Below, one piece after another: positions 1 through 32,143 of a stretch of DNA of 64,000 nt (position 1 is the stretch's first letter; the number at the start of each line of letters is the position of its first letter). The translations under genes and the position numbers were made by a program. The stretch is taken from positions 4,002 through 68,001 of the IMG/VR virus record IMGVR_UViG_3300008108_000037; one strand, written 5' to 3'. Origin of the DNA: a virus. Its lineage: Duplodnaviria; Heunggongvirae; Uroviricota; Caudoviricetes. A model generated the notes under the pieces. It searched no databases, had not been told where the DNA came from, and worked only from the letters and a program-made list of their open reading frames with translations.

Positions 1-111
1 CCTATGGATGTTTATTGGAGTGGTGCATCTCTCATAGTTGAAATGCAGAATGGACAACTCCGTAGATACTTCGGATTGGGTTCAGAAGATTTTGAAATCG
101 TTTACATATGA
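1..111 (+). CDS. hypothetical protein, 3' end (partial)
   Basis: Frame 1 open from the window edge to TGA 109-111 (PMDVYWSGASLIVEMQ...IVYI). Confidence 0.5.
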   Translation, partial: PMDVYWSGASLIVEMQNGQLRRYFGLGSEDFEIVYI

Positions 112-296
112 TACGTAGAGACTTTCCCAAAGACAATATCAGTCCAAGAAACCACGAGGGCAAAGTAATTGGAGGTGGCATGTACTTCATAATACACATT
201 ATAAGAATGCTATTACTTCTTGTAACCTTTCCTATTCGTGCATTTATATACATGCTCAATCCCTTCGCCTCTAAGAACGTCAGAATAAAAGATTAG
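108..296 (+). CDS. small hydrophobic hypothetical protein
   Basis: ORF track; ATGA overlap with upstream stop. Confidence 0.5.
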   Translation: MIRRDFPKDNISPRNHEGKVIGGGMYFIIHIIRMLLLLVTFPIRAFIYMLNPFASKNVRIKD

Positions 297-297
297 G

Positions 298-468
298 ATG
301 GACTTGACGCTAGCTTTAGTATCCGGTATATTAGGAGTTATTGTAATTAGAACAATAGCATTGGAGATCTTAGTATTGAAACTCAAAGGCAAAAACAAGC
401 TATTATGTAGAGAGAATCACAGATTAAGAATTAAACTCCAAGAGCATGAAAACAGTACAAAAGGGTGA
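298..468 (+). CDS. small membrane protein (56 aa)
   Basis: Read manually: MDLTLALVSGILGVIVIRTIALEIL...; starts 1 nt after upstream stop. Confidence 0.4.
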   Translation: MDLTLALVSGILGVIVIRTIALEILVLKLKGKNKLLCRENHRLRIKLQEHENSTKG

Positions 469-628
469 AGACATTAAAAGAGTAAAAGATGAAGAAGCGG
501 AATTATTCGTAAAATCCCGTGGCTATCAATACGTTCCTAAATCAGTTTGGAAAGAATTTAAAAATGGACCGAAACAATCTGAAGACTCAGAACTAAAAGA
601 TAAGAAGTCCAAAGGAAAGAAAGACTAA
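446..628 (+). CDS. basic hypothetical protein
   Basis: ORF track, Lys-rich. Confidence 0.55.
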   Translation: MKTVQKGEDIKRVKDEEAELFVKSRGYQYVPKSVWKEFKNGPKQSEDSELKDKKSKGKKD

Positions 629-902
629 TGAAAAACCAACATAAAGATCTTCAGTACCGAATGCCAACATTAGGTGCTGATGTAGCAGACGTCACGGAAT
701 GAGGATTCTAAGTAGTCTTGCTAGGGAGAACGGTTTAGTCGTGTGAATCGATTTTCCCAAAAAAGAGAAGGTCCAGCTTAAAAACTGGACCTTTTCCCTT
801 GTAGGGGCCATGGTTAGGACCCCGCCCGCGTACGTGCGTATTTGCATTTTTTTCTCTTGAGGATTATTCATAAATTTACCTATCACTAAAAAATCACACG
901 AT

Positions 903-1226
903 ATGCAATTAGAAATGGAAGACTACCACAAAGTAGCAGAAATGGAGTTCATTAAATATGGTAACTCTATGGTTTTTGGAACCCTTACACAAGAAAATAT
1001 CTCTCATATTGTTCAAGTTGGCGCTTCAGTCATGATGACTAGGGACAAATTTTTACAGGGAGGTAGCTTTGTACAATCGGTAGTAGATAACGATCTTCAG
1101 GGTGCAGTAAATAGAGCAGATGCTGTTATCCGCAGAGCACTTGTATTTATGGTATATCTAAACTCACACGTGAGGGCAGAGCTAGAAATAGAAAATATGA
1201 AATCACCATCTTTTGAAACAATCTAA
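903..1226 (+). CDS. early hypothetical protein
   Basis: ORF with upstream promoter at 841-880 and CACACGATATG leader. Confidence 0.8.
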   Translation: MQLEMEDYHKVAEMEFIKYGNSMVFGTLTQENISHIVQVGASVMMTRDKFLQGGSFVQSVVDNDLQGAVNRADAVIRRALVFMVYLNSHVRAELEIENMKSPSFETI

Positions 1227-1240
1227 AGGATAGATAGATT

Positions 1241-1375
1241 ATGGAAAACGAAAAATTTCAAAAGGTAGCAAAGGCAGTTTTTTTAATAGCCGCTTTTGCG
1301 TTTGGATTTTGGATTCTCTCATTTGGATTCAGACTCATTTGGGAAGCAGCTAAATCCATGTATCTGAACTGGTAA
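1241..1375 (+). CDS. small membrane protein (44 aa)
   Basis: Read manually: MENEKFQKVAKAVFLIAAFAFGFWILSFGF...; followed by terminator. Confidence 0.65.
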   Translation: MENEKFQKVAKAVFLIAAFAFGFWILSFGFRLIWEAAKSMYLNW

Positions 1376-1562
1376 AAATCTGTCCCGGATTTTTAGAGAT
1401 GCTCCAACGGAGCATCTTTTTTTGTGGGCATCCGCAGAAGTTGCTGCACGATGCTGCAATTTCCTGAGGCGCCCCTGCGTTACGAATCGGATCAACTTTC
1501 TTTTTTCTGCATTTTTTGTAACAAGAGTTTTTTCTTAATTTGCCCCATAAACACACGACACC

Positions 1563-2018
1563 ATGAATCTAATCTATCAACTCGGGGAAAACCTATTCAT
1601 CAAAGGAGATAAGGTTATCAGCTACGAAACGCACGTAGCATCTATTAAGGATAACATCATTTACGAGTTTGGAAAGTTCTCTAGAACAACTAGCAAACAC
1701 ATTTCAAGAGTAAATCACACGACAATGCAAACTAAAGTCTATTATGAAATGTTCTCCAATGCTGGAGAAAAGGCATGTCAATCACTCGTTGATGGGATCT
1801 CAAAGAAGATTCAGGGCAAAGAGAGAATGACTAAAGAAAGAATCAAAGAACTCTATGATGCTGGGAGAAAGAAGATCTCAGAGAAACATGGAGAAGTTTA
1901 TGACACTGAACCACGTGGGCACATCGCACACCAAATTAGCAAAGCTCTAAGAGACTCTGGTTATGGATTCTATCTTAACTCTTGGGGTGATGTTGAAGAT
2001 GGTCTATACGACAGCTAA
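1563..2018 (+). CDS. early hypothetical protein, apparent fusion of two cassettes (internal start 1725)
   Basis: ORF track; FSRTTSKH motif in N-half; internal CACACGACAATG leader in frame at 1725. Confidence 0.75.
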   Translation: MNLIYQLGENLFIKGDKVISYETHVASIKDNIIYEFGKFSRTTSKHISRVNHTTMQTKVYYEMFSNAGEKACQSLVDGISKKIQGKERMTKERIKELYDAGRKKISEKHGEVYDTEPRGHIAHQISKALRDSGYGFYLNSWGDVEDGLYDS

Positions 2019-2288
2019 ATAAGTCTTTCCAATCTTTAGATTGGTTTAGGTAAGGCCTGGGTTTCTACCCGGGCTTTTTTGTGTGGATGGGTTTTGGGAA
2101 AAGTTGCATATGCTGGCTTTTTTCGCTGGGGCGCCTCAACTGATTCACATCAGCGTGTGGTGTAATTCCAAAGGGGCCATAATCGGGACCCCGCCCGCGT
2201 AGGCACGTGCGAAGAGGGAATTTATGTGGACATTTTTTCTTATCGAGGATTTTTTCTAATTTTATCCTATTAAATAAAAAGGTACATT

Positions 2289-2675
2289 ATGAAGTTATGG
2301 TTTTACGGTTTAGCTGATTGTCACGGTGTGGAATCATTCGTACACGAGGTTAGTCCAATAGCCAGAGAGCTATTTTTTGCCCCAGAGGAATCTGAGGATG
2401 TGTTAGCTGGACAATATGCGATGTGCCTAAGAGCTCACGCAAATCCACAAAGGCATGCAGTAGCTTATCGTGTGAAAATGGAGGAGAGCAAATCGATCGA
2501 AGTACAAGAAATGTTAAAGAAGACTCAGTATGTTGAGGCATTGAGATTCATTAAAGAGAACATGGAAGAACTTCAATTGGGCACTCAATATACTACTAAA
2601 AAAGCAGCGGAGAAAAACTGGAATATGATACCAAATCCAGATTTGGATCCGTACCATGAAGATAATGATTCTTAA
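2289..2675 (+). CDS. early hypothetical protein
   Basis: ORF with own promoter. Confidence 0.8.
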   Translation: MKLWFYGLADCHGVESFVHEVSPIARELFFAPEESEDVLAGQYAMCLRAHANPQRHAVAYRVKMEESKSIEVQEMLKKTQYVEALRFIKENMEELQLGTQYTTKKAAEKNWNMIPNPDLDPYHEDNDS

Positions 2676-2886
2676 ATCTTTTATGGCTTGGATTTCGGGA
2701 GTGAAAGAAAAGCCGGTTGAACCCAAAGTCAAGAAAACCTTTCCTCCTCGAGATGCTAGTCTTTGCTCATTCAACGAATGGACAGAGATCACCCAATTCT
2801 CCTCGCTCTATGAACCCAATTTCAGGAACCAAGAAAGATTAGATCCCATCAAAAAAGAAGTGAGAGAAGCCAACAAGCATTTTTAA
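2656..2886 (+). CDS. hypothetical protein
   Basis: ORF track, overlaps upstream gene end. Confidence 0.55.
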   Translation: MKIMILKSFMAWISGVKEKPVEPKVKKTFPPRDASLCSFNEWTEITQFSSLYEPNFRNQERLDPIKKEVREANKHF

Positions 2887-2930
2887 CTTCAGCGGGGATT
2901 TATTAGATTTGCCTTATTTAACACACGACT

Positions 2931-3575
2931 ATGCACAACAAATCTCACAAACTCGATTCCGCTTCCTTCCGCACATTCATGTTTCAAGGTAAGGCATTCT
3001 TTACCCTGCACAACATCGAGAAGGACACCCACATCACATTCCGGATTCAAACACCCAAGCGTAAACGCGGCCAACCTGAAGAGACCCGTTACTTTGAGGT
3101 CTACGTCAAGGCTTTGAATGACAAGTACGCAGGCAACAAATATGTTGGACGCATTGACCGCAAGGAACGTTCCTTCAAACCATATGGTTATGTGGAGCGT
3201 GACCATGTTGGTATTCAAACTATTGAATGGTTGATTCGCAATTGGAGTCACTTGGAGGAATATGAGAAAGGAGAGAAGCTAGCAATCTATCACTTGGGCA
3301 CATGCTGTAAATGTGGATTACCTCTCACAGTCCCTGAAAGTATTCAAAATGGGATTGGACCACAATGCATGAAATATCGGGAGGGTAAATCCATTGACCT
3401 TCTTAAAGAGCTTGGCTTCTATAAGCCAGCAACCGAATATGCGGAGTTGGTCTATAATGCTCTTGAACTACGCCCGGATCTTTTCGATAAAATCTTTGTC
3501 CCTGATGTTATCCGTAGAGCTAACAAATGGTACAAGCTCATGGATAAACTGAGCAACGATATAGGTCTTTTCTAA
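2931..3575 (+). CDS. DUF6011-like Zn-finger protein
   Basis: CCKCGLPLTVPESIQNGIGPQC matches the CxxCGxxLTxPxSIxxGIGPxC pattern; ends DIGLF. Confidence 0.75.
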   Translation: MHNKSHKLDSASFRTFMFQGKAFFTLHNIEKDTHITFRIQTPKRKRGQPEETRYFEVYVKALNDKYAGNKYVGRIDRKERSFKPYGYVERDHVGIQTIEWLIRNWSHLEEYEKGEKLAIYHLGTCCKCGLPLTVPESIQNGIGPQCMKYREGKSIDLLKELGFYKPATEYAELVYNALELRPDLFDKIFVPDVIRRANKWYKLMDKLSNDIGLF

Positions 3576-3796
3576 AAGACAGTTTTCATAGGTACAACGA
3601 CCCTGGGTTTCTACCCGGGGTTTTTTGTGGAGTTAGGTAAAGTGAATTTTCTCGGACCGTCCGAGAATTCGGCGAGGCGCCCCGGCGAAGTTCAGGTGTT
3701 TTCAGGTGTTAACAGTCTTTACGGGTTGCATTTTTTTCCTCGAGGAAATTATTATAAATTGGACTTATTAAATTACTTACTAAACCCATTATCAAA

Positions 3797-4003
3797 ATGA
3801 CACACCAGTTTAACTTCTTTGAATCCCTAGATGGAAGGGAACTATTCCATTGGTTAGGTACACCATGTTTTATTTCAGATTACTACCAGAAAGAAAACGA
3901 TAATCTAGTTCAGATTACATCTTATGATGGTAGAGTATATGATGATGTCCCAGAGAGGGATTTGGAAAGTATGTCTCCTGAAGACATGGTAGGATTAGTT
4001 TAG
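3797..4003 (+). CDS. early hypothetical protein
   Basis: ORF between promoter and terminator. Confidence 0.75.
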   Translation: MTHQFNFFESLDGRELFHWLGTPCFISDYYQKENDNLVQITSYDGRVYDDVPERDLESMSPEDMVGLV

Positions 4004-4251
4004 ACTTTTTTCATAGGTTAGATCAAATACACCGGCCTGGGTTTCTACCCGGGCCTTTTTGTGTGGACCCATTTTGAACCAGGACTTTCACAGAGACTTC
4101 ACAGAGACTTCGCGGTGAGGCGCCCCTGCGGTTTTATTTGCATTCACACCCGGAACATAGCATAAGGTTTGGCGAGAAAAAAATTTTCAAAAACATTTTT
4201 TAATTTGGAGGTTTATTATTAATTTAGCCTCGTACTTAAAAAAACACGACT

Positions 4252-4518
4252 ATGTTACAAACTTCAACCCCGGGACCATCAATCCCACAAGCTTCAATCG
4301 AAGCTCTCAAAGAAAACCTTAAGAAGGGACCAGTTCGTTTCGCATTCCGTAAAAAGGATGGATCACTCAGATTAGCCTATGGAACTTTGGACATTAACAA
4401 AATTCCTTCCGCTAACCATCCAAAGGGTAATTCAGCTTCTCCTAAAATTCTTCCATTCTATGATTTGGAAAAATTCGCTTGGAGAAGCATTCAAATTGGT
4501 CAACTCGTTTTCAGTTAA
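4252..4518 (+). CDS. SH3 beta-barrel / WYL-like domain protein (DUF2693-like)
   Basis: LKKGPVRFAFRKKDGSLRLAYGTL...FYDLEKFAWRS pattern. Confidence 0.75.
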   Translation: MLQTSTPGPSIPQASIEALKENLKKGPVRFAFRKKDGSLRLAYGTLDINKIPSANHPKGNSASPKILPFYDLEKFAWRSIQIGQLVFS

Positions 4519-4741
4519 AAAGAGGAGTTAATAAATCAAGAGCCTGGGTTTCTACCCGGGCTTTTTTGTGGGGTAAGGTTTGGGAATTTTGCTAGCGTAT
4601 GTGAATCGAGACGAGGCGCCCCTACCGATACACATACGGATCAGGAACTGGGTCGAAACTTTTTTCCGAAACATTTTTGTCATTCGAGGATTTGTCATAC
4701 ATTAGCCTCATAAAACAATTTTTTAATCAAAAATCACACAC

Positions 4742-5176
4742 ATGAAATTAACTAAAGCGCAAGTTGAAGCTGTCGTTTCTGAAGTAAATGATCGTATCAA
4801 CAGAGCAACACAAAGCCAAATTCATCTTTTCAAAGGCAAGGATGAATGGGAAAAAATCAAGACAATAGTTAAAGAGTATCAAAATCTTGAGAAGAGCTTA
4901 GAGAAGGCCAAAGAAGCGGTAGAGAAGTTGGAAAGCGATTATGAGGACTTTGAAAGTGATGTTGAAGCAAGGATCCAAAGGTTTGAAAAGAAGTTCGGTG
5001 TGGATGTAGATTGGAAGTGGATTGAGGATAATGAGGAGCCCACTTTCAAAATGGAATTCAAAGATCTCACCCAGAAAATCGAAAGAACAGTTACCTTGCT
5101 GGGGATTGATAGTAAAGAAAAGATTACCAGTGATCTTCTAATTGAGAAGATGGTAGATAAGTTTTCAACTGTGTAG
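4742..5176 (+). CDS. coiled-coil early hypothetical protein
   Basis: ORF between promoter and terminator. Confidence 0.8.
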   Translation: MKLTKAQVEAVVSEVNDRINRATQSQIHLFKGKDEWEKIKTIVKEYQNLEKSLEKAKEAVEKLESDYEDFESDVEARIQRFEKKFGVDVDWKWIEDNEEPTFKMEFKDLTQKIERTVTLLGIDSKEKITSDLLIEKMVDKFSTV

Positions 5177-5382
5177 TAAATATAGATTTCAAAGATCCAA
5201 GGAGCCCAGATTTAGGTCTGGGTTTTTTGTGGGGTAAGGTTTGGTTTTTTCGGAGACGGCGTGAAGTAATACGATGAGGCGCCCCTACCCGCAATATTGG
5301 GATTCGATTCGTTAGATTTCTTTGAGGAAACATTTTATTTTTCCGTATAACTTTTATAGATTTACGGCATAAAATAAAACAT

Positions 5383-5613
5383 ATGCTTACTGAAGAACAA
5401 AGAGTAATCTTTAGAGAAATCTTAGATCTGAATTGGGAGTTTAGCCACACAGAAGAGAACTGGGGCGTTAAATGGGATATAGCCAGAAAACTCAATCAGA
5501 GAAAGAAAGATCTTAAAATGAGTATGGGTGAAGAAGCTTATGATCACTTCATGAACATGGGCAGGGAAATGTTCTCCCCGAGGAAAGAAGAAGTTGCCGA
5601 GGAGATTTCATAA
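5383..5613 (+). CDS. early hypothetical protein
   Basis: ORF with own promoter. Confidence 0.75.
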   Translation: MLTEEQRVIFREILDLNWEFSHTEENWGVKWDIARKLNQRKKDLKMSMGEEAYDHFMNMGREMFSPRKEEVAEEIS

Positions 5614-5670
5614 AAACATTTTTAATTTCAAGAGTAGTAAACTAAATTTGCAAACTAAAACGTAAACAAT

Positions 5671-5979
5671 ATGCCAAGGAGACCAAAGAAAGGAAAATCA
5701 TCAGATCTGTTGTTAAGAAAACTAATTGGTAAACTTGATCCGATCGAGACAACCCTCTTAAGAGAACGTATAGTTAGAATCTGTGAAATGAGCAAGCAGG
5801 ATATGTTAATGAATCCCGATAAGTATTCAAGGGGAATTATTGCTTCGCATTTGTTAGAAGCCTTTTATAATAAATGTTTAGCCCAGCTGAGTTATGAGAG
5901 CAGAGATTCTGCAGAGCGTGCACCATCCACTGTAACTGAGCCTGTGGTTGAAGAAAAAGAAGAGTTAGTGATTTCTTAG
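5671..5979 (+). CDS. early hypothetical protein
   Basis: ORF; TAAATTTG box upstream; terminator downstream. Confidence 0.75.
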   Translation: MPRRPKKGKSSDLLLRKLIGKLDPIETTLLRERIVRICEMSKQDMLMNPDKYSRGIIASHLLEAFYNKCLAQLSYESRDSAERAPSTVTEPVVEEKEELVIS

Positions 5980-6308
5980 TTTGTTTTTTGATTACAAGGG
6001 AAGCCGGGTTATTCCGGCTTTTTTTGTGGGGAGGGGTATCCCGGGAGACCCCGCACGCGTATGAGCGTGCGAAGTAGATATATAGTAACGACTCCTGAAT
6101 CCTTACCCTGACGAAAGCAAAAACCCGGACGTTTCTACGTTCGGGTTTTTTATTGTCCCAAACTTTTGATGTTACAACATCTGTCTGCGGGATGAGGCGC
6201 CCCTGCTAGTTAGATTGTTTTAAAACAACTTAACTATGGTTTTAATTTGGATAACATTTTTAATCCTTGAGGAATTTCGTTAATTTAGCCCTTCTAAAAT
6301 CAAAGATT

Positions 6309-6596
6309 ATGTTATTAGATGAAGAACCAGTGATAACGGAAGAAGAATTATCAGATGTCTCGATTGAAGATCTGCTTGGTTCATCATTAGTTGTCTATAA
6401 CGACGATGTAAACACTTTTGAATGGGTAATTGAGTGCCTTTGTAGCTATCTAAAGCATTCACGTGAACAAGCAGAACAATGTGCTTGGCTTATTCACACC
6501 AAAGGGAAATGCAAGGTTAAAAGCGGAACTAAAGAGGAATTAGAACCCTATAAAGATGCTCTCCTCGATTCTGGCTTGTCAGCAACGATCGAGTAG
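6309..6596 (+). CDS. clpS: ATP-dependent Clp protease adaptor ClpS (Bacteroidota type)
   Basis: LVVYNDDVNTFEWVIECL...QAEQCAWLIHTKGKCKVKSG signature; ATG 6309 preferred over TTG 6267. Confidence 0.9.
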   Translation: MLLDEEPVITEEELSDVSIEDLLGSSLVVYNDDVNTFEWVIECLCSYLKHSREQAEQCAWLIHTKGKCKVKSGTKEELEPYKDALLDSGLSATIE

Positions 6597-6648
6597 CATT
6601 TTTTTATCCAGAGGCAATTTAATAAATTTGCCTCATAAAATCAAATGT

Positions 6649-6831
6649 ATGGGAACAATTTTCAAAAATCTACTTCACAAAATCTCAGGCGATTCTAACC
6701 TCAACATTCCGTTGGTAGTTAGGGTTCGCAGGGTTCAAATGGAGCGCGAAGGCTTTAACACCGACCATATTAATTGGGAACATTACACCAAAGTATTGGA
6801 GGCCAAAGCTGAAGTGCTGAAACAACAATAA
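6649..6831 (+). CDS. early hypothetical protein
   Basis: ATG 6649 just after TAAATTTGCCTC promoter box. Confidence 0.7.
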   Translation: MGTIFKNLLHKISGDSNLNIPLVVRVRRVQMEREGFNTDHINWEHYTKVLEAKAEVLKQQ

Positions 6832-7067
6832 GTTTAAGTGGTTCTGGTTACATAAAGACCCTGGGTTTTACCCAGGGTTTTTTGTTGGGTAAAGTCTGGG
6901 TAAAACTGGATAAGCGCTGGGTAAAGTTGCTGCGGCGCCCCGGCAGAACCGCATGAACCTGATGTACCGGTTGTACCCGATGTACCGGATGTACCGGATG
7001 TTCAGTTCGCATTTTTTTATATCGGGGAGATTTCATAAATTGCCTTATAATTAAAAATACACACGAC

Positions 7068-7364
7068 ATGGAAAAATCAGTCACACTCAATTTCAGCCAC
7101 TTCATTTGTAAGGGCACTGCACAAATCACTCTTTGGGGTGGGGATCAAGGAACAATCACTATGGATTCATTCAGAATATCGGAAGGTTACACCGATGCGG
7201 ATCTTAAAGCTTGCCTGAACGATGGCGGGTTTGGTTGTGAATCTATTGATGGTGCGGTCATTGACATTTATGCAGTTTACAGTAACTATGAATCTCAAAC
7301 AACCCGTTGGTATGAAACAAGAGTTATTGGTAGAGTTAATGAAGAGTTGTTAATGGAAGCTTAG
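7068..7364 (+). CDS. early hypothetical protein
   Basis: ACACACGACATG leader; promoter and terminator. Confidence 0.8.
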   Translation: MEKSVTLNFSHFICKGTAQITLWGGDQGTITMDSFRISEGYTDADLKACLNDGGFGCESIDGAVIDIYAVYSNYESQTTRWYETRVIGRVNEELLMEA

Positions 7365-7507
7365 GTTTGGTTATGGTTAGTTGATGAGCTTGGACTTAGG
7401 TCCAAGCTTTTTTTGTGGGGTATTGAAGAAAGCCACACGCTAGCGTGCATCGGTTGCGGCGCCCCGACCGATAACAGCTACACGCTAGCTTTTGAATACA
7501 TATAGTT

Positions 7508-7690
7508 ATGAAACACATCCGAATCTTTGAAGAGTTTGAAAATGAAGGTGAATACATTCCTCCGATACAAATAGAGTGTAATAAATGTGGATGGAATTGG
7601 AACTCCACCGAAACCAATCCCAAAGACCTGTATATCTGTCACAAGTGTGGAGCGGATAATAAGGATTTTTACAAACCGGAAGAAGAGTAG
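7508..7690 (+). CDS. Zn-ribbon protein with capsid-targeting-like N-terminus
   Basis: MKHIRIFE; CxxC...CxxC; flanked by 14-bp direct repeats. Confidence 0.75.
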   Translation: MKHIRIFEEFENEGEYIPPIQIECNKCGWNWNSTETNPKDLYICHKCGADNKDFYKPEEE

Positions 7691-7802
7691 TTGCGGCGCC
7701 CCGGCGGTTGGATACAGGACAATGCCCTATACTTTTTTTCTTGCGGCATTTTTTCTTTTCGCCTTTTTATATTACTTTTATGTCATACTAAACAACACGA
7801 CT

Positions 7803-8177
7803 ATGACAGATCAAGAACAATTCGAGCATCTCAAGAAAGAGATAAAGAACCTCAACGGAAAAATCTTTATCTCATTCGTTCATCCAGGACTTTATGGTCC
7901 ACTCAGAAATCTCAACTTCATTTTAGAAAACCCAGATCCGGTAGAACTAAACAAGTATCTTAAGGAAGGCTGGCACAGAATAGTTGAAGATATTTGGAAA
8001 GAAACCCTAATGGCAACTCAACCTATGGTCATGCCTTGGGAAATGACTTTAACTGCTGAAAAAACCCCAAAGGTTTTCAAAACAATTAAAGATGCTGAAA
8101 CCCATATTAGGCATTTACTTAAGACCGGAATTAGTATGACTCAAGATCCTTTCTATTACAGATTAGGAATTCACTAA
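7803..8177 (+). CDS. early hypothetical protein
   Basis: ACACGACTATG leader at 7803 inside the longer ORF-track call. Confidence 0.8.
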   Translation: MTDQEQFEHLKKEIKNLNGKIFISFVHPGLYGPLRNLNFILENPDPVELNKYLKEGWHRIVEDIWKETLMATQPMVMPWEMTLTAEKTPKVFKTIKDAETHIRHLLKTGISMTQDPFYYRLGIH

Positions 8178-8460
8178 CCTCAAAACTTTAAACCCTTGGA
8201 AAAACATCCAAGGGTTTTTTGTGGGGTAAGGTTTGGGAAATTCGCTAGCGGATGTGAAACGGGATGGGGCGCCTCAGCAAGTATACATCAGATCTACACA
8301 TTTTCAGGAAGGGGTATCCGGGGAGACCCCGCCCGCGTACGTGCGCTGCGAGGCGCCTCGGCAAAGTCAACCTATGGTTTACCTATGGTCTATTCCTTTT
8401 TGAGGCATTTTTTTGTTTTACCCCAATTGATTATATTTGGGATAACTAATACATCTTTAT

Positions 8461-8652
8461 ATGACACAAGAAAAAGACCCATTAATTGGAAAAAGAATTA
8501 AACTAATTAGAATGGACGATCCTTTCCCGGTTGAACCAGGTTCCGAAGGAACTATAGAATCAATTGATGGGATGGGACAGATTTGGGTACATTGGGATAA
8601 TGGAAGAGGTTTAGCCATTATACCGGGTACGGATGAGTATGAAATAGTTTAA
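8461..8652 (+). CDS. DUF4314-like protein
   Basis: RIKLIRMDDPFPVEPGSEGTIESIDGMGQIWVHWDNGRGLAIIPGTD pattern. Confidence 0.8.
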   Translation: MTQEKDPLIGKRIKLIRMDDPFPVEPGSEGTIESIDGMGQIWVHWDNGRGLAIIPGTDEYEIV

Positions 8653-8925
8653 GTGTGTTGAAGTCTTTTGTTTAAAAGTTTAAACAAAAGATTAAACGAG
8701 CCTGCAGAGGCTCGTTTTTTTTTGTGGGGTAGTATTCCAAACCTCAAAAAATAGCTACACGCTAGGTTTTGAAGCTGAGGCGCCCCGACTGGAAAAAACC
8801 AAAAAACCCACTTTATCCAGAAAAGGCGCCCCTGCGGTATAGAGGCGGACAAAAACTTTTTTCGTGGGCATTTTTTTATTTCGCCTCTTTATAGTATATT
8901 TACACCATAATCAAATATCACACAC

Positions 8926-9237
8926 ATGACAACATCAATTAAAAAAGCAAGCAACTCAGCTCTCTCAAACGGAACATCTTTTCACGGACACGTTTTCAGG
9001 GCAACACCCCAACAACTCACTGACCTTTTTGGACCAGCCCATTATTCAGCTAATGATGGCGAGGACAAAAGCAATTTTGATTGGACAATGTTATTGGGCG
9101 AGGAAGTTCCGTTTACAATTTATGATTGGAAAGAATACCGCACATTAAAAATGAATGAAAAGGTGGAATGGCATATTGGGGCTAAAGACCCTTTTTTTGC
9201 AGGTTTGGCTTTATCTGAAGTAATCAAGCTTTTATAG
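8926..9237 (+). CDS. early hypothetical protein
   Basis: FTIYDWKEY/WHIG phage-type motif; cassette context. Confidence 0.8.
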   Translation: MTTSIKKASNSALSNGTSFHGHVFRATPQQLTDLFGPAHYSANDGEDKSNFDWTMLLGEEVPFTIYDWKEYRTLKMNEKVEWHIGAKDPFFAGLALSEVIKLL

Positions 9238-9435
9238 GAACAGAGGAATTTAGAAACCCGGATCTTTTTAAGGTCCGGGTTTTTTGTGGGCTAAGGTTTG
9301 GGAATTTTCTCGGACCGTCCTAAAATCTGGCGAGGCGCCCCGGCCGGTATGCAAACTTTTTGCATACTTTCCAAATTGCATTTTTTTCTTTCGGGGAGAT
9401 TTATTAATTTAGCCTCATAATCAAACACACACACT

Positions 9436-9840
9436 ATGTCACATTTTCAAGTTACCCTCGGACAACAAATTTCAGCTTTCATCAACGAAGGCAAGATCAT
9501 TGGAGATTACGAGCACTGCTCAGGCTTCTATGATTGGTTCTGTTCAGACCGCGCATTAGAGGCCAAAGCCAAATCACTAATGCCTAAGGTTATCAAATTC
9601 GTTAAGGCCAAAGGAATCGACCCTAACCGCCATTACGTGTGGTTCAAAAACAACTGTCCCATTAACGGACCTTTGTATGATGATTTCCGTATTGCCTCGC
9701 TAGAGACCGGAGATAATGTGTTCTGTGTTACACCCAAATCCGGACACACCGACAGAGCAGAAGTTTACGGCCAGGAGAATCTTTGGAACGGGCCAATCCA
9801 TCAGGCTAACACCTGGACAGAACTAATAAGAGCAATTTAA
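9436..9840 (+). CDS. early hypothetical protein
   Basis: YDWFC...FKNNCP...LYDDFRI; cassette context. Confidence 0.85.
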   Translation: MSHFQVTLGQQISAFINEGKIIGDYEHCSGFYDWFCSDRALEAKAKSLMPKVIKFVKAKGIDPNRHYVWFKNNCPINGPLYDDFRIASLETGDNVFCVTPKSGHTDRAEVYGQENLWNGPIHQANTWTELIRAI

Positions 9841-10038
9841 TTTTTCATAGATAGGTTGATGTTTTTAAAGGCCTGGGATTTTATCCCAGGTTTTTTTGTG
9901 GGGTAAGGTTTAGGAAATTTGCTAGCGTATGTGAATCGAGACGAGGCGCCCCAGCATGTATGCATGTGAGCTGCACACTTGCATTTTTTATTATCGGGGA
10001 AATTTTATAATTTTACCTCACACTTAAATCACACAAGC

Positions 10039-10224
10039 ATGCAAGCAAACTTAGAAATTGAAATCCCAGAGGATTTCATCACAGCAGGAAAAGAACTAGC
10101 TCTTTCAGATGCAAGGATCCAAGAGATCTTTGAAGGATGGTTACACCTTATAATTTATGAAAGGATTATTCCTGATTATCTAGAAGATATGATACAGGAT
10201 TTACCTGAGGAAGTGAAGGAGTAA
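10039..10224 (+). CDS. early hypothetical protein
   Basis: ATG 10039 after CACACAAGC leader. Confidence 0.7.
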   Translation: MQANLEIEIPEDFITAGKELALSDARIQEIFEGWLHLIIYERIIPDYLEDMIQDLPEEVKE

Positions 10225-10566
10225 GTATTTAAGATCCCGGGATTCACATCTCGGGATTTTTTGTGGGGTAAGGTTTGGAAAAAGCTAGCGTGTAGCTGAA
10301 AACTGTTGCGGCGCCCCAGCAAGTATGCATCAGGTTTGCATACTTAACTTCTCTTGCATTCGGGGGATACCCGGGAGACCCCGCGCTCGTGCGAGAGAAA
10401 AAAGAGTGAATCAACCAAAATCGATGATCGATCGATTCAAATCGTTGCGGCGCCCCTGCAGGTTAATCCATTTTTAGACATTATTATAACCTGAGGGTAT
10501 TTCGGGGTACATTTTTCTTTTTGCCCCGGATTTCATATATTTACATCATAATTAAAAACATACACC

Positions 10567-10746
10567 ATGAGCAAAAGGGATTTAATCGATCTAACCAAAC
10601 AATTTCTCCGTCAAGAGGGCATCACAGATGACTCTTACATCATTTCATTACAAGGACCTACCTTTATCTTCACTTCAGGAATAAAGTTAGCTACGGGCAT
10701 TAAAAAGAAGTTAAAAGAAGCTGGTGTGTTGGTTATGGGAGGATAA
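10567..10746 (+). CDS. early hypothetical protein (59 aa)
   Basis: Read manually: MSKRDLIDLTKQFLRQEGITDD...; promoter, ACACCATG leader and terminator. Confidence 0.7.
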   Translation: MSKRDLIDLTKQFLRQEGITDDSYIISLQGPTFIFTSGIKLATGIKKKLKEAGVLVMGG

Positions 10747-11078
10747 GTTTATCCTTCCGAAAAAGAAAAAACCTGGGAGACCAGGTTTTTTTGTGGGGTA
10801 AGGTTTGGGAAAGAATCAAAAAATGGATTATCATTCAGAGGCGCCCCGACTGGAAAAAACCAAAAATTGGGTTTTATCTAAATAAGGCGCCCCTGCGGTA
10901 AAAACCAAAAAAAACCAATTTTTCCAAATGAGGCGCCCCGGCGGTTTGCAAATCCAAGGATTTCTGGGGTTATAATGTTGGAAAAGTTAAAGTCGTGTTA
11001 GAACGAATAACAATTTCAATTGCATTTTTTTGTTTCGAGGAAAATCTCTAATTTAGCCTCATTAAAACATCACACACC

Positions 11079-11309
11079 ATGAAAAAATTCTTACAAACCA
11101 CAGCATCTTGGTCATTCCTCTTATTTGGAATCCTTACCATTTTAATTCTTTGCGCCGAACCACCCACTGGCCCAGCAGATGAACCTTATATTGAGCATGC
11201 AATGTTTGTCAAAACCTGGGGTGGGATAATTCTCGGAACCTGGATTGGCTTAATAGTCACTGCTGTGACCTGTGGATCCATTTTAAGGTTTAAATATGAA
11301 GATGACTAA
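11079..11309 (+). CDS. early membrane protein
   Basis: Two hydrophobic segments; cassette context. Confidence 0.75.
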   Translation: MKKFLQTTASWSFLLFGILTILILCAEPPTGPADEPYIEHAMFVKTWGGIILGTWIGLIVTAVTCGSILRFKYEDD

Positions 11310-11367
11310 AGCATTTTTTCCCTTCGGGGAAATTTATTAATTTAGCCTCGTACTTAAACAACATCCC

Positions 11368-11496
11368 ATGAAAGCACCCTTTAGATTAACCTGTAAAGGA
11401 GGCGTCTACGAAGCAGACACCTTCTTCTCCCTCGTCATAGAAGTTCTTAAACACCGATTTTGGCATTTAAGAACTCACGGTAAATGGATAGACTAA
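11368..11496 (+). CDS. early hypothetical protein (42 aa)
   Basis: Read manually: MKAPFRLTCKGGVYEADTFFSLVIEVLKHRFWHLRTHGKWID; own promoter and terminator. Confidence 0.7.
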   Translation: MKAPFRLTCKGGVYEADTFFSLVIEVLKHRFWHLRTHGKWID

Positions 11497-11748
11497 TTTC
11501 TTCCCCCCGTTTCTCAAACCAGACCTAGTGTCTGGTTTTTTTGTGGGGTGGGGAACCCGGGGAGACCCCGCACGCGTACGAGGGTTTTTGAGGCGCCCCA
11601 ACCAAGAGAGCTAAAAAACCAAATTGCATGCATGCATAGGAATAGGCGCCCCTGCCCGCTTGCACATCTTTCACACATCTTTTTTCCCCTGCATTTTTCT
11701 TTCTCGAGGAAAAGTCTTAATTTAGCCTCATCATTAAATAACCACACT

Positions 11749-11925
11749 ATGTTAAAAGAACAATTCAACCGAGTAATCGAAATCTACCAATCTCTAGATG
11801 GAATCGAACAAGCCGCCTTCTCCTTTTGGAGTTTATGTGTAGCTGCATTTTATGGTACACTGGTTTACATTTTGTATTTAATAGGAAAAGAAGGGATAGA
11901 AAAATTAAGGAGAAGTAGAAGTTAA
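11749..11925 (+). CDS. early membrane protein
   Basis: CACACTATG start at 11749; one TM. Confidence 0.7.
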   Translation: MLKEQFNRVIEIYQSLDGIEQAAFSFWSLCVAAFYGTLVYILYLIGKEGIEKLRRSRS

Positions 11926-12227
11926 TTCACACAAGTATTCATTCATTTTAAAAAAGTCCCAATGGGACTTTTTTTGTGGGGTAAGGTTTGGGAAAAGTGA
12001 AAAGTTAGGATTATCATTCCGAGGCGCCCCGACTGGAAAAAACCAAAAAACCAAGTTTAACTTGAAAAGGCGCCCCTGCTGGAAAAAACCAAAAAACCCA
12101 ATTTTTCAAAATGAGGCGCCCCTGCCCGCTAGCCATTCGCTAATGGCACTTGTAACATTTTCTCTCGGCATTTTTTCTTTTCGCCTCTTTACATTACTTT
12201 TACCCTATCAATCAAAAATCACACACA

Positions 12228-12446
12228 ATGAACACAGCACTTAAAATGATTCTCGCCGGAGTATCCACCGCCATCCTTCTTATTCTCATGCTTTGGAAGG
12301 GATTTGAAAACGCTCCCATTTTCGAAAGCGTAGCAGCTGAGATAACCTTCGCTTCCATTCTTTTCGTCGCCACCATGCTATTCACCCTTGGGGGTATTAG
12401 AGAGTTATACCATAACTCCTATGGGAAGCGACCCCAAAAATTTTAA
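12228..12446 (+). CDS. early membrane protein
   Basis: Two TMs; CACACACAATG leader. Confidence 0.75.
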   Translation: MNTALKMILAGVSTAILLILMLWKGFENAPIFESVAAEITFASILFVATMLFTLGGIRELYHNSYGKRPQKF

Positions 12447-12448
12447 CC

Positions 12449-12748
12449 ATGGATTGTCAGTTGTGTAAGTATAAGAGAGATGAACCCGGCACGCCTTATG
12501 TGCGTTGCCGGGCCATCAAAGAACATCCCGCTTTCCACAAGCTCTCCATAGATGAAAAGGGAGCGTTAGAGTTAGGCGTGTCAGCCACAGGAAGGTTTCC
12601 TTATCTCACCAAAGACAACAAACCACTGATTGAGATTCATAAAGGTCCAGACTGCTTCTGGCCCACATCATATGATCCGGCAGATATTGGAGATTGCCAC
12701 TTCATGAAGCTCCGCCCAGATGCTGTCTCTTGGGAGAGGATAAAATAA
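12449..12748 (+). CDS. Cys-rich hypothetical protein
   Basis: CxxC...C...FWPxxYDP...C phage-type motif. Confidence 0.75.
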   Translation: MDCQLCKYKRDEPGTPYVRCRAIKEHPAFHKLSIDEKGALELGVSATGRFPYLTKDNKPLIEIHKGPDCFWPTSYDPADIGDCHFMKLRPDAVSWERIK

Positions 12749-12814
12749 TCCTCAATAACATTTTTTTCTTTTGGAGGTGTTTATTAATTTACATGCACAC
12801 TAAAACACTTTCCC

Positions 12815-13042
12815 ATGTTAATTCATCTTCCCTCTGTCGCTTCTTTCATCGACACCTCAGACGCCTTAGTTTACGCCGCTTACCAAAACGGTAACGTGGA
12901 TCACGATTCCGCCACCTCTATAGCAGACTGTTCAGAGGTCTGGTTTTCTTTGCTCTCTCACCGAGACGCTGAGATAGTGGAGATCGTGGAAAGATATCTA
13001 CAGCTGAACATCAGCTTTCTAGTTAGAGGACTCGCAAATTAA
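12815..13042 (+). CDS. early hypothetical protein
   Basis: ORF with own promoter. Confidence 0.7.
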   Translation: MLIHLPSVASFIDTSDALVYAAYQNGNVDHDSATSIADCSEVWFSLLSHRDAEIVEIVERYLQLNISFLVRGLAN

Positions 13043-13224
13043 TGTCCAGTACAGCATAATCTTATGAACGGAATTTCTTACATTTGCCTCTCAATACAAA
13101 CAAAAGACTTTAAAGAATAGTTCATAGGTGTGTTAGTAAGTGTAACTCTCCCTTCGGGGAGAGTTTTTTTTGTGGGGTGAACCAGAAGGGTCAAAAACGG
13201 TGACCGCTTTTGACTGCGCGGCGA

Positions 13225-13519
13225 GGCGCCCCGGATAGAAAAACCCAAAAATTGGATTTTATCTAAATAAGGCGCCCCTGCTGGATTTTTTTAAATTTTT
13301 GGTTTTTCCAAAAAGGGCGCCCCTGCTGAAAAAACCCAAAAACCCTAGTTTTTCCAAATAAGGCGCCCCTGCCGCAAAACCTCTCTATTCTTTCTATCAG
13401 CGGTGCCCCTGCATGGAAGTTTAATTTGGATTTCTTGCATTATCCAAATAGGGCGCCCCTGCCGGGAAACCTTTTTTTGGCTTTTTTAGGTTTTTTGGAT
13501 TTAACCCCTGGGGCACCCC
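13225..13519 (+). repeat. tandem array of 7 GG(C/T)(G/A)CCCC(T)GC units with A/T-tract spacers
   Basis: Unit spacings 46,45,46,40,50,60 bp. Confidence 0.9.
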
Positions 13520-13554
13520 TGCCGGCTAACTCTTTCTAGAAATGCCATTTATGG

Positions 13555-13745
13555 GGATGGCCAGGGGGCTTAAAAGAGGGTGTTTTTTAGGGGGCCAAAA
13601 AAGGGGTGTTTTAAGGGGGGTAAAATAAGGGGGACGGTACCCCCTAGGCTCCCCCCGTTTTTAGGGGGGGTTTTGGGCCCATTTAGGACCCCTTTTTAAG
13701 GGGGGCCGTATATGCCTTGTTTTACTATATTTTGGGGGAGGGGTG
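13555..13745 (+). other. G-run/A-T-run tract with G-quadruplex potential
   Basis: G3-G7 runs starting 13564,13578,13590,13603,13615,13629,13664,13700. Confidence 0.75.
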
Positions 13746-13838
13746 CCTTGTGGATTGGAGAGATGAAATATAGAGCTGGGATTAGTCGTGGGGGTCCCTT
13801 CTTTCTTCTCGTTTTTCTTTTGCAGTAGAAATAGCTCC

Positions 13839-13972
13839 TACCAATGCGCGTACGCACACTTAATAACGGTCATACTATGACGCAATTTTATAATTTAAGT
13901 ACGACACGATTTTATAATTTTAATACGGCCACGCGCACGTATATTAGTAATACCAATGCGCGTACGCACACT
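13839..13972 (+). repeat. 22-bp perfect direct repeat TACCAATGCGCGTACGCACACT enclosing an AT-rich core
   Basis: 13839-13860 and 13951-13972; ATTTTATAATTT at 13885 and 13909 between them. Confidence 0.95.
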
Positions 13973-13999
13973 GGATATCCCTCCATTTGGAGGGACAGA

Positions 14000-14048
14000 G
14001 TGGGATTTCTTTATAAATCGACCGGGCCAGTGTGGGCTTTCTTTATAA
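14000..14048 (+). repeat. 17-bp direct repeat GTGGG(A/C)TTTCTTTATAA
   Basis: 14000-14016 and 14032-14048. Confidence 0.85.
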
Positions 14049-14125
14049 GTGGATAAGGATGGACCTTATATCAGGTGGTAGTTTCCCTAGGGGTTTGGAA
14101 TATATAGGGTAAATAATATTCGATT

Positions 14126-15708: not shown

Positions 15709-16368
15709 ATGCAGATTAGTTACACTAAATCCGGCATTTTAGGAGGGGATGGTGTGGTTTTTTATAATCCACTCTATGATGGGGGAGGAACCACCATCGG
15801 ATATGATATGTGCAAGCATCCATCCATCCTAAAACACCTCTCCAATATAAACAACACTTTGGAGATATGCTCCGGTCCCGGATTTATTGGCTTCTATTTG
15901 TTATTTAACGGTCTAACAAAAAAATTATGGCTATCCGATAAATTTGACGGTGTGCTGCCGGATATTCTCAAAACAAATGCATTCAATCAGGTAGATGTGA
16001 AATTTATTCATTCAGATTGTTTTCAAAATTTTGAAAAGTCCTTAAAATTTGATTTGATAATCAGTAACCCTCCCCATGTCCAACATGATATGGAATGGAT
16101 TAGAGACAGAAAGACCGAGGAGGAAAAACACGCAAGTTATAGAATTAATCTTGATGAGGATCTAAAATTCCATCGGGAATTCTTTGAAAATGTCAAGAAT
16201 CATCTCAATCCCGGAGGCAAAGTAATATTGGTCGAAAACCAAACATACATAAGCTATGCAACCATTATGGATCTAGCAGGATCTGGATTTGAGTGTGAGG
16301 TTATAAATGGGGTATATGCCGAGAAGAATTTTTATTATATCGTCCTGACTCTAGGTACCAGAGATTAA
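15709..16368 (+). CDS. class I SAM-dependent methyltransferase (PrmC/HemK-like)
   Basis: LEICSGPGFIG motif I; FDLIISNPPH motif IV; ATG 15709. Confidence 0.85.
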   Translation: MQISYTKSGILGGDGVVFYNPLYDGGGTTIGYDMCKHPSILKHLSNINNTLEICSGPGFIGFYLLFNGLTKKLWLSDKFDGVLPDILKTNAFNQVDVKFIHSDCFQNFEKSLKFDLIISNPPHVQHDMEWIRDRKTEEEKHASYRINLDEDLKFHREFFENVKNHLNPGGKVILVENQTYISYATIMDLAGSGFECEVINGVYAEKNFYYIVLTLGTRD

Positions 16369-16490
16369 TAAAGAGCTTCCTTCTCAGCCCGGGCCTAGTG
16401 TCTGGGTTTTTTTATGTGCTAGGGGGCCTTGGGGCCTTGACGGCTCGGATGTCACGGGATCAGCATAGAGGAGGGATCGATATATAAATC

Positions 16491-17228
16491 ATGAGACACA
16501 AAGAAATTTCAGAGGCCATCTTTCTCATTAAACAATCTATTCACAATAAATCCCCACTCAGCTTAGTGAGAATAGGCGATGGTGAAATAAACATTTTAAA
16601 AGAAAGAGGTGGGTCAGATGACTGGAATCAAAAGGTAATCTCCCTCAATGAAACGTCCACGATCGAGGAAGCTTTTTCCATCAACAAACCATTCATAGAG
16701 AATGCAATAGCAAAAGCTGATATCCTTGGATTATTAGACCCCAAGTCTAAATACGTCTCTTTTAACTATGACGAGAATCTTTGGTCTATCTCCGATGAAT
16801 ACATTTTAAGGTTCAGAACCTCCATGCCAATGATTGTGGATCATCAGATATCTAGATCCAGAGAACTGGGATCAGTTCAGGGAATGAGAGATTTACTTTC
16901 AGGTAAAGCAATTCATATCATATCCCCTAATGTGGACAGATTAAAAGAGAGAAAAATAAGCGAACTTTTGGGATCTAAAGTTTCCTTTACGGATAATTCG
17001 ATGTCAATTAAGCACTATAACAGGCAACCAATCATTGACTCTTTTAAAAACATACGAGAGGATATAGTTCTTTTAGGTGTAGGACCTCATAAGGATTATT
17101 GTACAATTCTAAAAGAACATGGTAAAATAGCGATAGATCTTGGGGCGACATTGGATGCCTGGGCGGGATTAAAAACCCGGGGATGGTTCGAGAAGGGCAA
17201 TCTCCAAGAATATCTATTTATAGAGTAG
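16491..17228 (+). CDS. GT-D fold glycosyltransferase-like protein
   Basis: SLVRIGDGE, ADILGL, AIDLGAxxD motifs. Confidence 0.75.
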   Translation: MRHKEISEAIFLIKQSIHNKSPLSLVRIGDGEINILKERGGSDDWNQKVISLNETSTIEEAFSINKPFIENAIAKADILGLLDPKSKYVSFNYDENLWSISDEYILRFRTSMPMIVDHQISRSRELGSVQGMRDLLSGKAIHIISPNVDRLKERKISELLGSKVSFTDNSMSIKHYNRQPIIDSFKNIREDIVLLGVGPHKDYCTILKEHGKIAIDLGATLDAWAGLKTRGWFEKGNLQEYLFIE

Positions 17229-31948: not shown

Positions 31949-32143
31949 ATGTTAATTATAGATTGTAGCAAATATAATTCGATAGATCAGGCTTTAAAAG
32001 TGCTGAAAAACAAGGTGTCTAAAACAAATCTTGTTAAGCAACTGAGGGACAGACAAACTTATACAAAGCCTTCCGTGGTTAGGAGAAAAGAAGTTCTTGA
32101 TGCTATTTATAAGGAAAGCAAGATGAACTCTTTCGATAAATAA
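31949..32143 (+). CDS. rpsU: 30S ribosomal protein bS21 (Bacteroidota type)
   Basis: MLII...IDQALK..K.K..KT.....LRDRQTYTKPSVVRR pattern. Confidence 0.88.
   Translation: MLIIDCSKYNSIDQALKVLKNKVSKTNLVKQLRDRQTYTKPSVVRRKEVLDAIYKESKMNSFDK

Follow-up and report, generated by a model that had tools for sequence, protein, structure and literature searches.

What kind of genetic arrangement is formed by the small plus-strand genes that crowd the beginning of the window (the 64,000-nucleotide stretch analysed here, bases 4002-68001 of the 132-kb IMG/VR record G000), nearly all of which are equipped with a promoter-like element of their own and are joined by spacers that repeat the same blocks of sequence? 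A preliminary description of this DNA saw in it an integron-like platform for gene exchange. The evidence presented here points to a different answer: the locus is probably a recombination architecture of the promoter-stem-loop (PeSL) type within a hyperplastic array of presumed early genes, and not an integron. PeSL-mediated gene shuffling has been documented in T4-type phages (PMC2839356, PMC4122927). The argument for its operation here is built on the repetition of the same modules in the spacers, on an indel of a complete cassette whose junction runs through these repeats, and on cassette turnover between relatives in which the breaks fall in the spacers.

The completeness of G000 is estimated at 40%, which implies a genome of ~330 kb. 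For comparison, we used 20 strain contigs with 99-100% identity to the window, derived from at least five studies and from several lakes and years, as well as more diverged relatives, namely L230 (~86% nucleotide identity), L227 (~76% nucleotide identity), and L235 and G001 (~50-60% amino acid identity), the last being the closest IMG/VR relative of G000 (111 kb, 33% complete).

Repeated units and the spacers between them

The preliminary description counted about 25 single-gene cassettes between positions 800 and 13180, and this is largely borne out. The interval contains 27 plus-strand genes, 23 of which are preceded by a CATTTTT-N(16-24)-TAnnTT(T/G)R promoter-like element that ends 18-25 nt (in a few cases, up to 38 nt) before the ATG, the exceptions being genes 1241, 2656, 7508 and 12449, along with 18 putative terminators consisting of a hairpin and a T-run (folding energies of -8 to -19 kcal/mol); only the single-gene character has to be relaxed, several units being di- or tricistronic. 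When motifs are counted on the whole window, with the expectation derived from dinucleotide shuffles, CATTTTT-N16-24-TANNTTT occurs 16 times versus 1.18 expected (11 copies are inside the region), TTTTTGTGGGG 12 times versus 0.05 expected (all on the plus strand and all inside the region) and terminator-like sites 36 times versus 16.1 expected, with no enrichment of sigma-70-type sites (35 versus 30.5). Every sequence element that had been quoted at the outset was found in its place, and the motifs are far above chance.

The predicted promoter, present in ~30 copies, consists of GCATTTTTT, ~20 nt and TAnnTTTR, and fits the TTTG/TANNTTTG consensus of the -33/-7 promoters of Bacteroidetes (PMC6847099, PMC9723704). 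The leaders that follow are shorter than 25 nt, rich in CA or A and devoid of a Shine-Dalgarno sequence. Most units close with a predicted intrinsic terminator and a conserved G-rich tail, GTGGGGTAAGGTTTGGG; the stem-loop and the promoter are separate elements that do not overlap. In promoter 6597, the -7 box is surrounded by an inverted repeat of 10 bp; we considered this as a general feature of these promoters and rejected it, given that only about one third of them possess it.

The spacers follow a common order: the hairpin and T-run, the G-rich tail, a GGCGCCCC site ~50 nt past the T-run and the next promoter, before which some spacers additionally hold a double-palindrome module or short tandem repeats. 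In the window, GGCGCCCC is found 30 times versus 0.18 expected, with 28 copies on the plus strand, two on the minus strand and all of them intergenic; in the whole record, there are 30 plus-strand and three minus-strand sites, and none in the other 115 kb. The array motifs (GGCGCCCC, the promoter pattern and TTTTTGTGGGG) are confined to the first 17.5 kb of the record. The long identities between spacers that the preliminary description listed are equally real, including the 35-nt block shared by two non-adjacent spacers (Table 1), AATTTTCTCGGACCGTCC at 3645 and 9303, and GAGGCGCCCCGACTGGAAAAAACCAAAAA at 8777, 10838 and 12021. Furthermore, the blocks 10786-10942 and 11969-12125 share 83% identity, and a double-palindrome module, in which a near-perfect 20-bp palindrome (GGGGTATCCC/GGGAGACCCC) is followed by CGCGTACG, is conserved in G001, L227 and L235. 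These three relatives and L230 have the same promoter, terminator tail, terminator-phased palindrome and GACCCCGC module (GACCCCGC...CGCGTACG) as the window. Among the short tandem repeats, a 9-nt one (GATGTACCG-like, 5 units) at 6954-7000 lies directly upstream of promoter 7010; metagenome depth piles up there, owing to the similarity of this repeat to coding repeats of the collagen-like type in other organisms. A similar 9-nt-type repeat in G001 (L009:3061-3120) precedes a different gene.

The GGCGCCCC site itself is asymmetric in the window phage (tGAGGCGCCCCtGC) and a palindrome in the relatives (GTCGGGGCGCCCCGAC in L227, gtcAGGGCGCCCTcAC in G001 and GTCGGGGTGCCCTC in L235). The median distance from the T-run to the centre of the first copy is 50-55 nt in each of the five lineages (range, about 43-61), with extra copies at ~96 and ~142 nt, and the distance from the palindrome to the next promoter is 34-186 nt, with no helical phasing relative to the promoter detected. 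The mid-spacer sequence between the motifs is not conserved across the lineages, and because the spacing of palindrome and terminator is kept in all five while the intervening sequence diverges, this spacing appears to be under selection. We infer that the palindrome is a putative operator for a dimeric DNA-binding protein, linked to the terminator side of the units.

The array turns out to be larger than originally described. It does not start at 800: longer strain contigs locate the first early promoter near window position -6,886, which shows that the array extends upstream of the window, for a total of ~20 kb (about -6,886 to 13,171), ~48 genes and ~30 promoters, the region in the window being the larger part of this hyperplastic array of presumed early genes. 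On both sides, the array is flanked by non-coding DNA with runs of G and C and many GGCGCCCC sites. The downstream boundary contains five exact GGCGCCCC sites (13225-13459) and two variant units, in 45-46-nt and longer steps, and a 211-nt non-coding block (13766-13973; 77% identity in G001 and 84% in L227) in which two ATGCGCGTACGCACA repeats flank an AT-rich core. The CGCGTACG half of the double-palindrome module recurs in the boundary block. One strain contig, L224, lacks 235 nt (13825-14059) of this block, which is perhaps dispensable, unless the contig is mis-assembled.

Cassette turnover among strains and relatives

Is there any trace of complete units having been gained or lost through the repeats? 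An extra cassette of 396 nt follows gene 7803-8177 in L207, L219 and L220, assemblies that come from three samples. This cassette consists of a promoter, a 65-aa gene and a terminator, and the terminator-tail module flanks it on both sides as direct repeats of 95 nt. The window has a single copy of the module (8187-8282), the left part of which is identical to copy 1 of the repeat and the right part to copy 2, with the crossover within a 55-nt identical block that is located upstream of the palindrome. The PeSL model of excision and insertion predicts a single chimeric site after such an event (PMC2839356), and 8187-8282 is this site. Thus, at least one cassette indel passed through the repeats, and it is a case of general homologous recombination, not of site-specific exchange.

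The diverged relatives extend this picture. L230 and the window are colinear, with 2692-2870 missing from L230. L227, also colinear, lacks cassettes 7803, 8461, 10039 and 11368, shows a weak partial match to 11749 and possesses two cassettes of its own. The homology blocks between the window and L227 begin at the promoter (CATTTTT) and stop at the terminator tail. Three L227 genes are preceded by spacers or promoters similar to the ones that other cassettes have in the window; the L227 homologue of gene 7068-7364 is preceded by a spacer and a promoter like those at 10931-11077, and contig joints in three runs agree with the re-assortment of spacers in L227. Gene 4742-5176 shows 57% amino acid identity in L227 versus 90% for the neighbouring cassettes. 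In G001 and L235, the backbone is colinear and several single cassettes occupy other positions; homologues are missing for 13 of the 39 G000 genes in G001 and for about half in L235. In both G000 and G001, perfect matches of up to 35-37 nt connect spacers of the same genome that are not neighbours. A shared block of at least 20 nt connects six of 17 G000 spacers with another G000 spacer versus one of 17 with L227, and such longer sharing within than between genomes suggests exchange or conversion within the genome.

With respect to the tests proposed in the preliminary description, the cassette differences between relatives do break in the spacers, as seen in the strain chimera and the L227 blocks. 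The expected variation of gene order is found between relatives, as gain and loss of cassettes with re-ordering at greater distance, but not among the ~20 strains. Recombination between spacers is accordingly upheld by the one resolved indel and by the turnover in relatives, although it must be slow.

Several observations weigh against an exchange function of the spacers. Gene order is identical in all ~20 near-identical strain contigs (2017-2021), which is what leads us to conclude that turnover is slow, and even L227 differs by indels only, with no re-ordering. The differences between strains are mostly small deletions within genes, with junction homology of 0 or 1 nt; only one clean spacer-to-spacer event was resolved among them, and the strains with the extra cassette all come from one study. 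A 5,330-nt skip across the 35-nt repeat (4587 to 9918, run X20) was left unused, since a mis-join by the k=31 assembler is as likely as a real deletion and accounts for the depths equally well. Promoter strength, termination, early timing and the host are predictions from sequence features, and the T9SS C-terminal domain, considered as a host marker, scored 18 bits, below the family cut-off.

The deletions within genes include a conspicuous case. Gene 1563-2018 (151 aa) is an in-frame fusion of the N-terminus of a DUF8033 gene with the next gene, which arises, at 1711/1712, from a 301-nt deletion unique to the window record; in L210 and L211, the DUF8033 gene has lost other stretches, of 96 and 127 nt. 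The occurrence of three independent loss alleles among phages that are 99-100% identical suggests counter-selection of this early protein. In the contig of a distant relative (the one carrying P0027), where the array comprises more than 50 small plus-strand genes, the DUF6011 and WYL_2 genes precede the DUF8033 gene, the reverse of the order in the window. Outside the array, all other strain contigs have 160 nt extra at window 20286/20287, and in L219 and L220, the methyltransferase and GT-D-like genes (15713-17212) are replaced by a different gene of 263 aa.

Rival readings of the repeats

So could the array be an integron or a close analogue of one, after all? In such a scenario, a dedicated site-specific recombinase would act on a conserved site that every spacer contains, such as the GGCGCCCC palindrome, excising circles and re-inserting them. 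There is indeed a likeness: a unidirectional array of single-gene cassettes, each followed by an oriented, palindrome-derived 3' element at a fixed distance, with clusters of the sites at both ends of the array, cassette-sized indels and gene content that varies between relatives; an array protein of a distant relative even matches VCH_CASS14, named for a Vibrio integron cassette, although the connection is in the name only. However, neither Phage_integrase (PF00589) nor Resolvase (PF00239) is present in G000 or G001, both of which are partial (33-40% complete), in searches that detected Phage_integrase in 14 of 14 and Resolvase in 12 of 14 control genomes. Integron cassettes are promoterless and are expressed from the common promoter Pc, and IntI is a tyrosine recombinase, whereas 23 of the 27 genes here come with their own promoter-like element and most units with a terminator. 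Of the other hallmarks of integrons (intI, attI, attC), no GTTRRRY-type core or attC-like site was found. The one resolved exchange took place inside the 55-nt identical block and not at a conserved attC core, upstream of the palindrome, and the flanking palindromes are opposed in orientation (GAGGCGCCCC versus GGGGCGCCTC), which is not what site-specific exchange at the palindrome would leave. The analogy fails on every defining feature that was tested, the recombinase search covering two partial records, and with the gene order fixed among strains as well, the integron-like platform is not supported and appears highly improbable.

A simpler possibility is that the repeats are purely regulatory, in the sense that an identical set of promoter, terminator and operator is required for each early unit, whereas the turnover is ordinary mosaicism, to which the repeats contribute nothing as an exchange device. 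The fixed gene order in the strains, the prevalence of illegitimate deletions inside genes and the lack of mid-spacer conservation between relatives except for functional motifs are all compatible with this view, as is the palindrome held 50 nt past the terminator in five lineages, which points to selection for function. What it does not accommodate is the chimeric repeat, the bounding of the L227 homology blocks by modules with spacers re-assorted among genes, and the identical blocks in non-adjacent spacers, which imply ongoing exchange or conversion; we therefore deem it unlikely. Alternatively, GGCGCCCC might have nothing to do with transcription and represent replication or partition iterons, or some other DNA signal (strand-specific nick sites or an injection stop) that is tolerated in the only non-coding DNA there is. 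The tandem units with 45-46-nt steps adjoin the AT-rich, repeat-flanked conserved block (13.2-14.0 kb), a second cluster is found upstream, the strand bias is strong and the rest of the record is free of the sites. Nevertheless, the first copy always follows the terminator at ~50 nt, with more at 96 and 142 nt, which ties the sites to the transcription units, and the truncated block of L224, if not an assembly artefact, also speaks against such a role; this explanation strikes us as rather improbable.

We therefore return to PeSL-type recombination and to the manner in which it might work. In this scheme, transcription of the small, mostly orphan genes, one to three per promoter, would start from ~30 strong host sigma-A-type promoters. 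The palindrome site (16-bp, GTCGGGGCGCCCCGAC type) would most likely bind a dimeric protein encoded by the phage, the role of which would be to insulate the array or to switch it off. Because the modules are repeated ~20-30 times in one orientation, the general homologous recombination of the phage or the host could cross over between them, and such crossovers, presumably infrequent, would delete, insert, swap and eventually re-order whole units while leaving the genes unbroken.

An intriguing parallel to the palindrome sites is offered by the stoperators of Cluster A mycobacteriophages, 13-bp sites of a monomeric prophage repressor in temperate phages (PMC9283540, PMC6550527). Like the stoperators, the ~30 sites described here are short, intergenic, asymmetric in the window phage, oriented with transcription and spread across a gene block; unlike in the mycobacteriophages, the ancestral site would be a 16-bp palindrome and the phage appears to be lytic. 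We adopt stoperators as a working model for GGCGCCCC as a roadblock or shut-off operator. Speaking more tentatively, the palindromes and the clusters at the ends could possibly serve together as operators for a phage protein, by which the whole early region would be coated or fenced, a stoperator-like, domain-wide roadblock or shut-off in a lytic Bacteroidota jumbo phage. The nucleoprotein sites at the palindromes might additionally focus recombination to the cassette borders.

Known systems, the phage and its cassette genes

The array and the PeSLs of T4-type phages (PMC2839356, PMC4122927) have in common a repeated motif that combines a strong host-type early promoter with a stem-loop terminator, the location in hyperplastic regions upstream of orphan genes, and indels or replacements between relatives that are bounded by the motifs, the deleted locus keeping one chimeric motif. 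The differences are also substantial: the phage group and the (probable) host phylum are others, the promoter is of the Bacteroidota -33/-7 type and Shine-Dalgarno sequences are missing; the units form a single uninterrupted array of ~20 kb instead of lying in scattered regions; terminator and promoter are 85-330 nt apart, with further conserved modules between them; and palindrome clusters mark the array ends. The preliminary description had recognized both the PeSL-like, self-contained promoter-gene-terminator units of a probable Bacteroidota jumbo phage and the greater elaboration of the spacers compared with T4 PeSLs, and we concur on both counts, with the G-rich tail, the terminator-phased palindrome and the double palindrome as the elaborations. 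What is new, and falls outside the PeSL description, is the palindrome phased to the terminator, together with the boundaries marked by motifs.

Two other arrangements come to mind. The host-takeover module of SPO1, as Stewart et al. reportedly described it in 1998, consists of ~24 small early genes with many strong host-sigma promoters and terminators. It resembles the array as a cluster of small early genes with many promoters and terminators of the host type but lies in the terminal redundancy, and no repeated recombinogenic spacers are known there. Morons, which Hendrix et al. are said to have defined in 2000 as promoter-gene-terminator units, differ in being single insertions in otherwise late operons.

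With regard to the host, the gene for ribosomal protein bS21 is informative (31970-32113; 48 bits, above the cut-off). It is encoded in G001 as in G000, and because bS21 is encoded by freshwater phages of up to 331 kb with predicted Bacteroidetes hosts (PMC9723584), both records can be linked to these phages. Together with the TAnnTTTG-type -7 boxes and the absence of Shine-Dalgarno sequences, it indicates that the host most likely belongs to Bacteroidota. A Ro-like protein that was tried as a further clue has its best cultured-phage match in Bacillus phage G (49%) and is uninformative on the host. Near-identical DNA (92-98% of sampled words) occurs in 20 runs on lakes or fresh water, which belong to 13 studies (2017-2021). 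All in all, this looks like an abundant, large, bS21-encoding freshwater phage that appears to be lytic.

Other searches yielded little. When the array region was compared with 50,697 phage records by megablast, nothing matched, and the IMG/VR motif scan for the terminator tail found no exact match; GACCCCGCNCGCGTA was discarded as a scan motif for its lack of specificity (at least 115 chance matches), the double ATGCGCGTACGCACA pattern matched G001 only, and patterns for a single protein, that of DUF6011, detected no relative in IMG/VR. Loci L010-L088 carry the 134-aa gene without this array architecture. The first search for RNA data sets returned none and the second a single metatranscriptome with a 0.17 share of words, which is uninformative on expression; in a single raw-read run, one read was placed on the array. 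Rfam produced only sub-threshold terminator look-alikes, and a tRNA search found none. Sigma-70 region 2 was not found in either partial record (G000 and G001), in which T7-type RNA polymerase likewise gave no match, but neither did the controls.

Most cassette proteins (Table 1) have no Pfam or PHROG function, the families identified being DUF8033, DUF6011, WYL_2, ClpS-like, DUF4314, DUF7303 and a zinc-ribbon protein, the last conserved in G001 (66%). A role of the cassette genes in host takeover is plausible.

Table 1. Array units, with predicted promoters and terminators, repeated modules and boundaries (window coordinates unless a contig is named)
Feature	Position	Strand	Details
Upstream boundary	L232:10560-11800 (~1.25 kb)		six GGCGCCCC sites
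Upstream part of array in window	1-628	+	packed small genes, ends 111, 296, 468, 628; no own promoters
Double-palindrome module GGGG..CCGGGAGACCCCGCnCGCGTACG	803-839	+	copies: 2172-2208, 6032-6068, 8310-8346, 10362-10398, 11549-11585
Unit	845-1440	+	promoter 845-886; genes 903-1226, 1241-1375; terminator 1395-1426
GGCGCCCC copies	1468-13459	+ (28/30)	consensus tGAGGCGCCCCtGC; at least one per spacer
Unit	1510-2096	+	promoter 1510; gene 1563-2018; terminator 2052-2083
Unit	2231-3642	+	promoter 2231; gene 2289-2675; ORF 2656-2886
Same unit, second part		+	internal promoter 2878; DUF6011 gene 2931-3575; terminator 3599-3628
Unit	3729-4076	+	promoter 3729; gene 3797-4003; terminator 4034-4060
Unit	4194-4585	+	promoter 4194; WYL_2 gene 4252-4518; terminator 4541-4567 and tail GTGGGGTAAGGTTTGGG
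35-nt identical block	4588-4622 = 9918-9952	+	non-adjacent spacers
Unit	4672-5245	+	promoter 4672; gene 4742-5176; terminator 5205-5228 and tail
Unit	5331-6042	+	promoters 5331, 5617; genes 5383-5613, 5671-5979; single terminator 6000-6025
Unit	6255-6899	+	promoters 6255, 6597; ClpS-like gene 6309-6596; gene 6649-6831; terminator 6857-6883
Unit	7010-7425	+	promoter 7010; gene 7068-7364; terminator 7386-7414
Zinc-ribbon-like 60-aa gene	7508-7690	+	in array; no own early-type promoter or terminator
Unit	7747-8238	+	class II promoter 7747 (TTTTCGCC); gene 7803-8177; terminator 8194-8220 and tail; absent from L227
Terminator-tail-GCTAGCG-palindrome module	8187-8282	+	chimera of two 95-nt direct repeats
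Unit	8406-8735	+	promoter 8406; DUF4314 gene 8461-8652; terminator 8694-8723; absent from L227
Unit	8869-9300	+	promoter 8869; gene 8926-9237; terminator 9258-9285
Unit	9379-9915	+	promoter 9379; gene 9436-9840; terminator 9871-9897 and tail
Unit	9982-10280	+	promoter 9982; gene 10039-10224; terminator 10236-10262; absent from L227, G001
Unit	10510-10810	+	promoter 10510; gene 10567-10746; terminator 10766-10792
Three GGCGCCCC units	10817-10942	+	46-nt spacing
Unit	11023-11560	+	promoters 11023, 11312; genes 11079-11309, 11368-11496; terminator 11516-11542
Unit	11692-11992	+	promoter 11692; gene 11749-11925; terminator 11955-11975 and tail
Three GGCGCCCC units	12000-12125	+	46-nt spacing
Last units	12169-13180	+	promoter 12169; genes 12228-12446, 12449-12748
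Last units, end		+	promoter 12759; gene 12815-13042; terminator 13144-13171
Downstream boundary	13180-14100		non-coding; GGCGCCCC cluster, then G-run tracts, then conserved block

If the interpretation advanced here is correct, PeSL-type shuffling extends beyond the T4-like phages of Proteobacteria and cyanobacteria to uncultured freshwater phages of Bacteroidota, and its appearance in a new phage group suggests that it is a general solution to the problem of keeping a changeable set of early genes. In practical terms, the array yields ~30 natural putative promoter, leader and terminator modules of Bacteroidota and delimits ~48 candidate genes for host takeover or anti-defence. Furthermore, the conserved palindrome, with its constant distance from the terminator, and the boundaries marked by motifs may point to a new regulator of phage early transcription.

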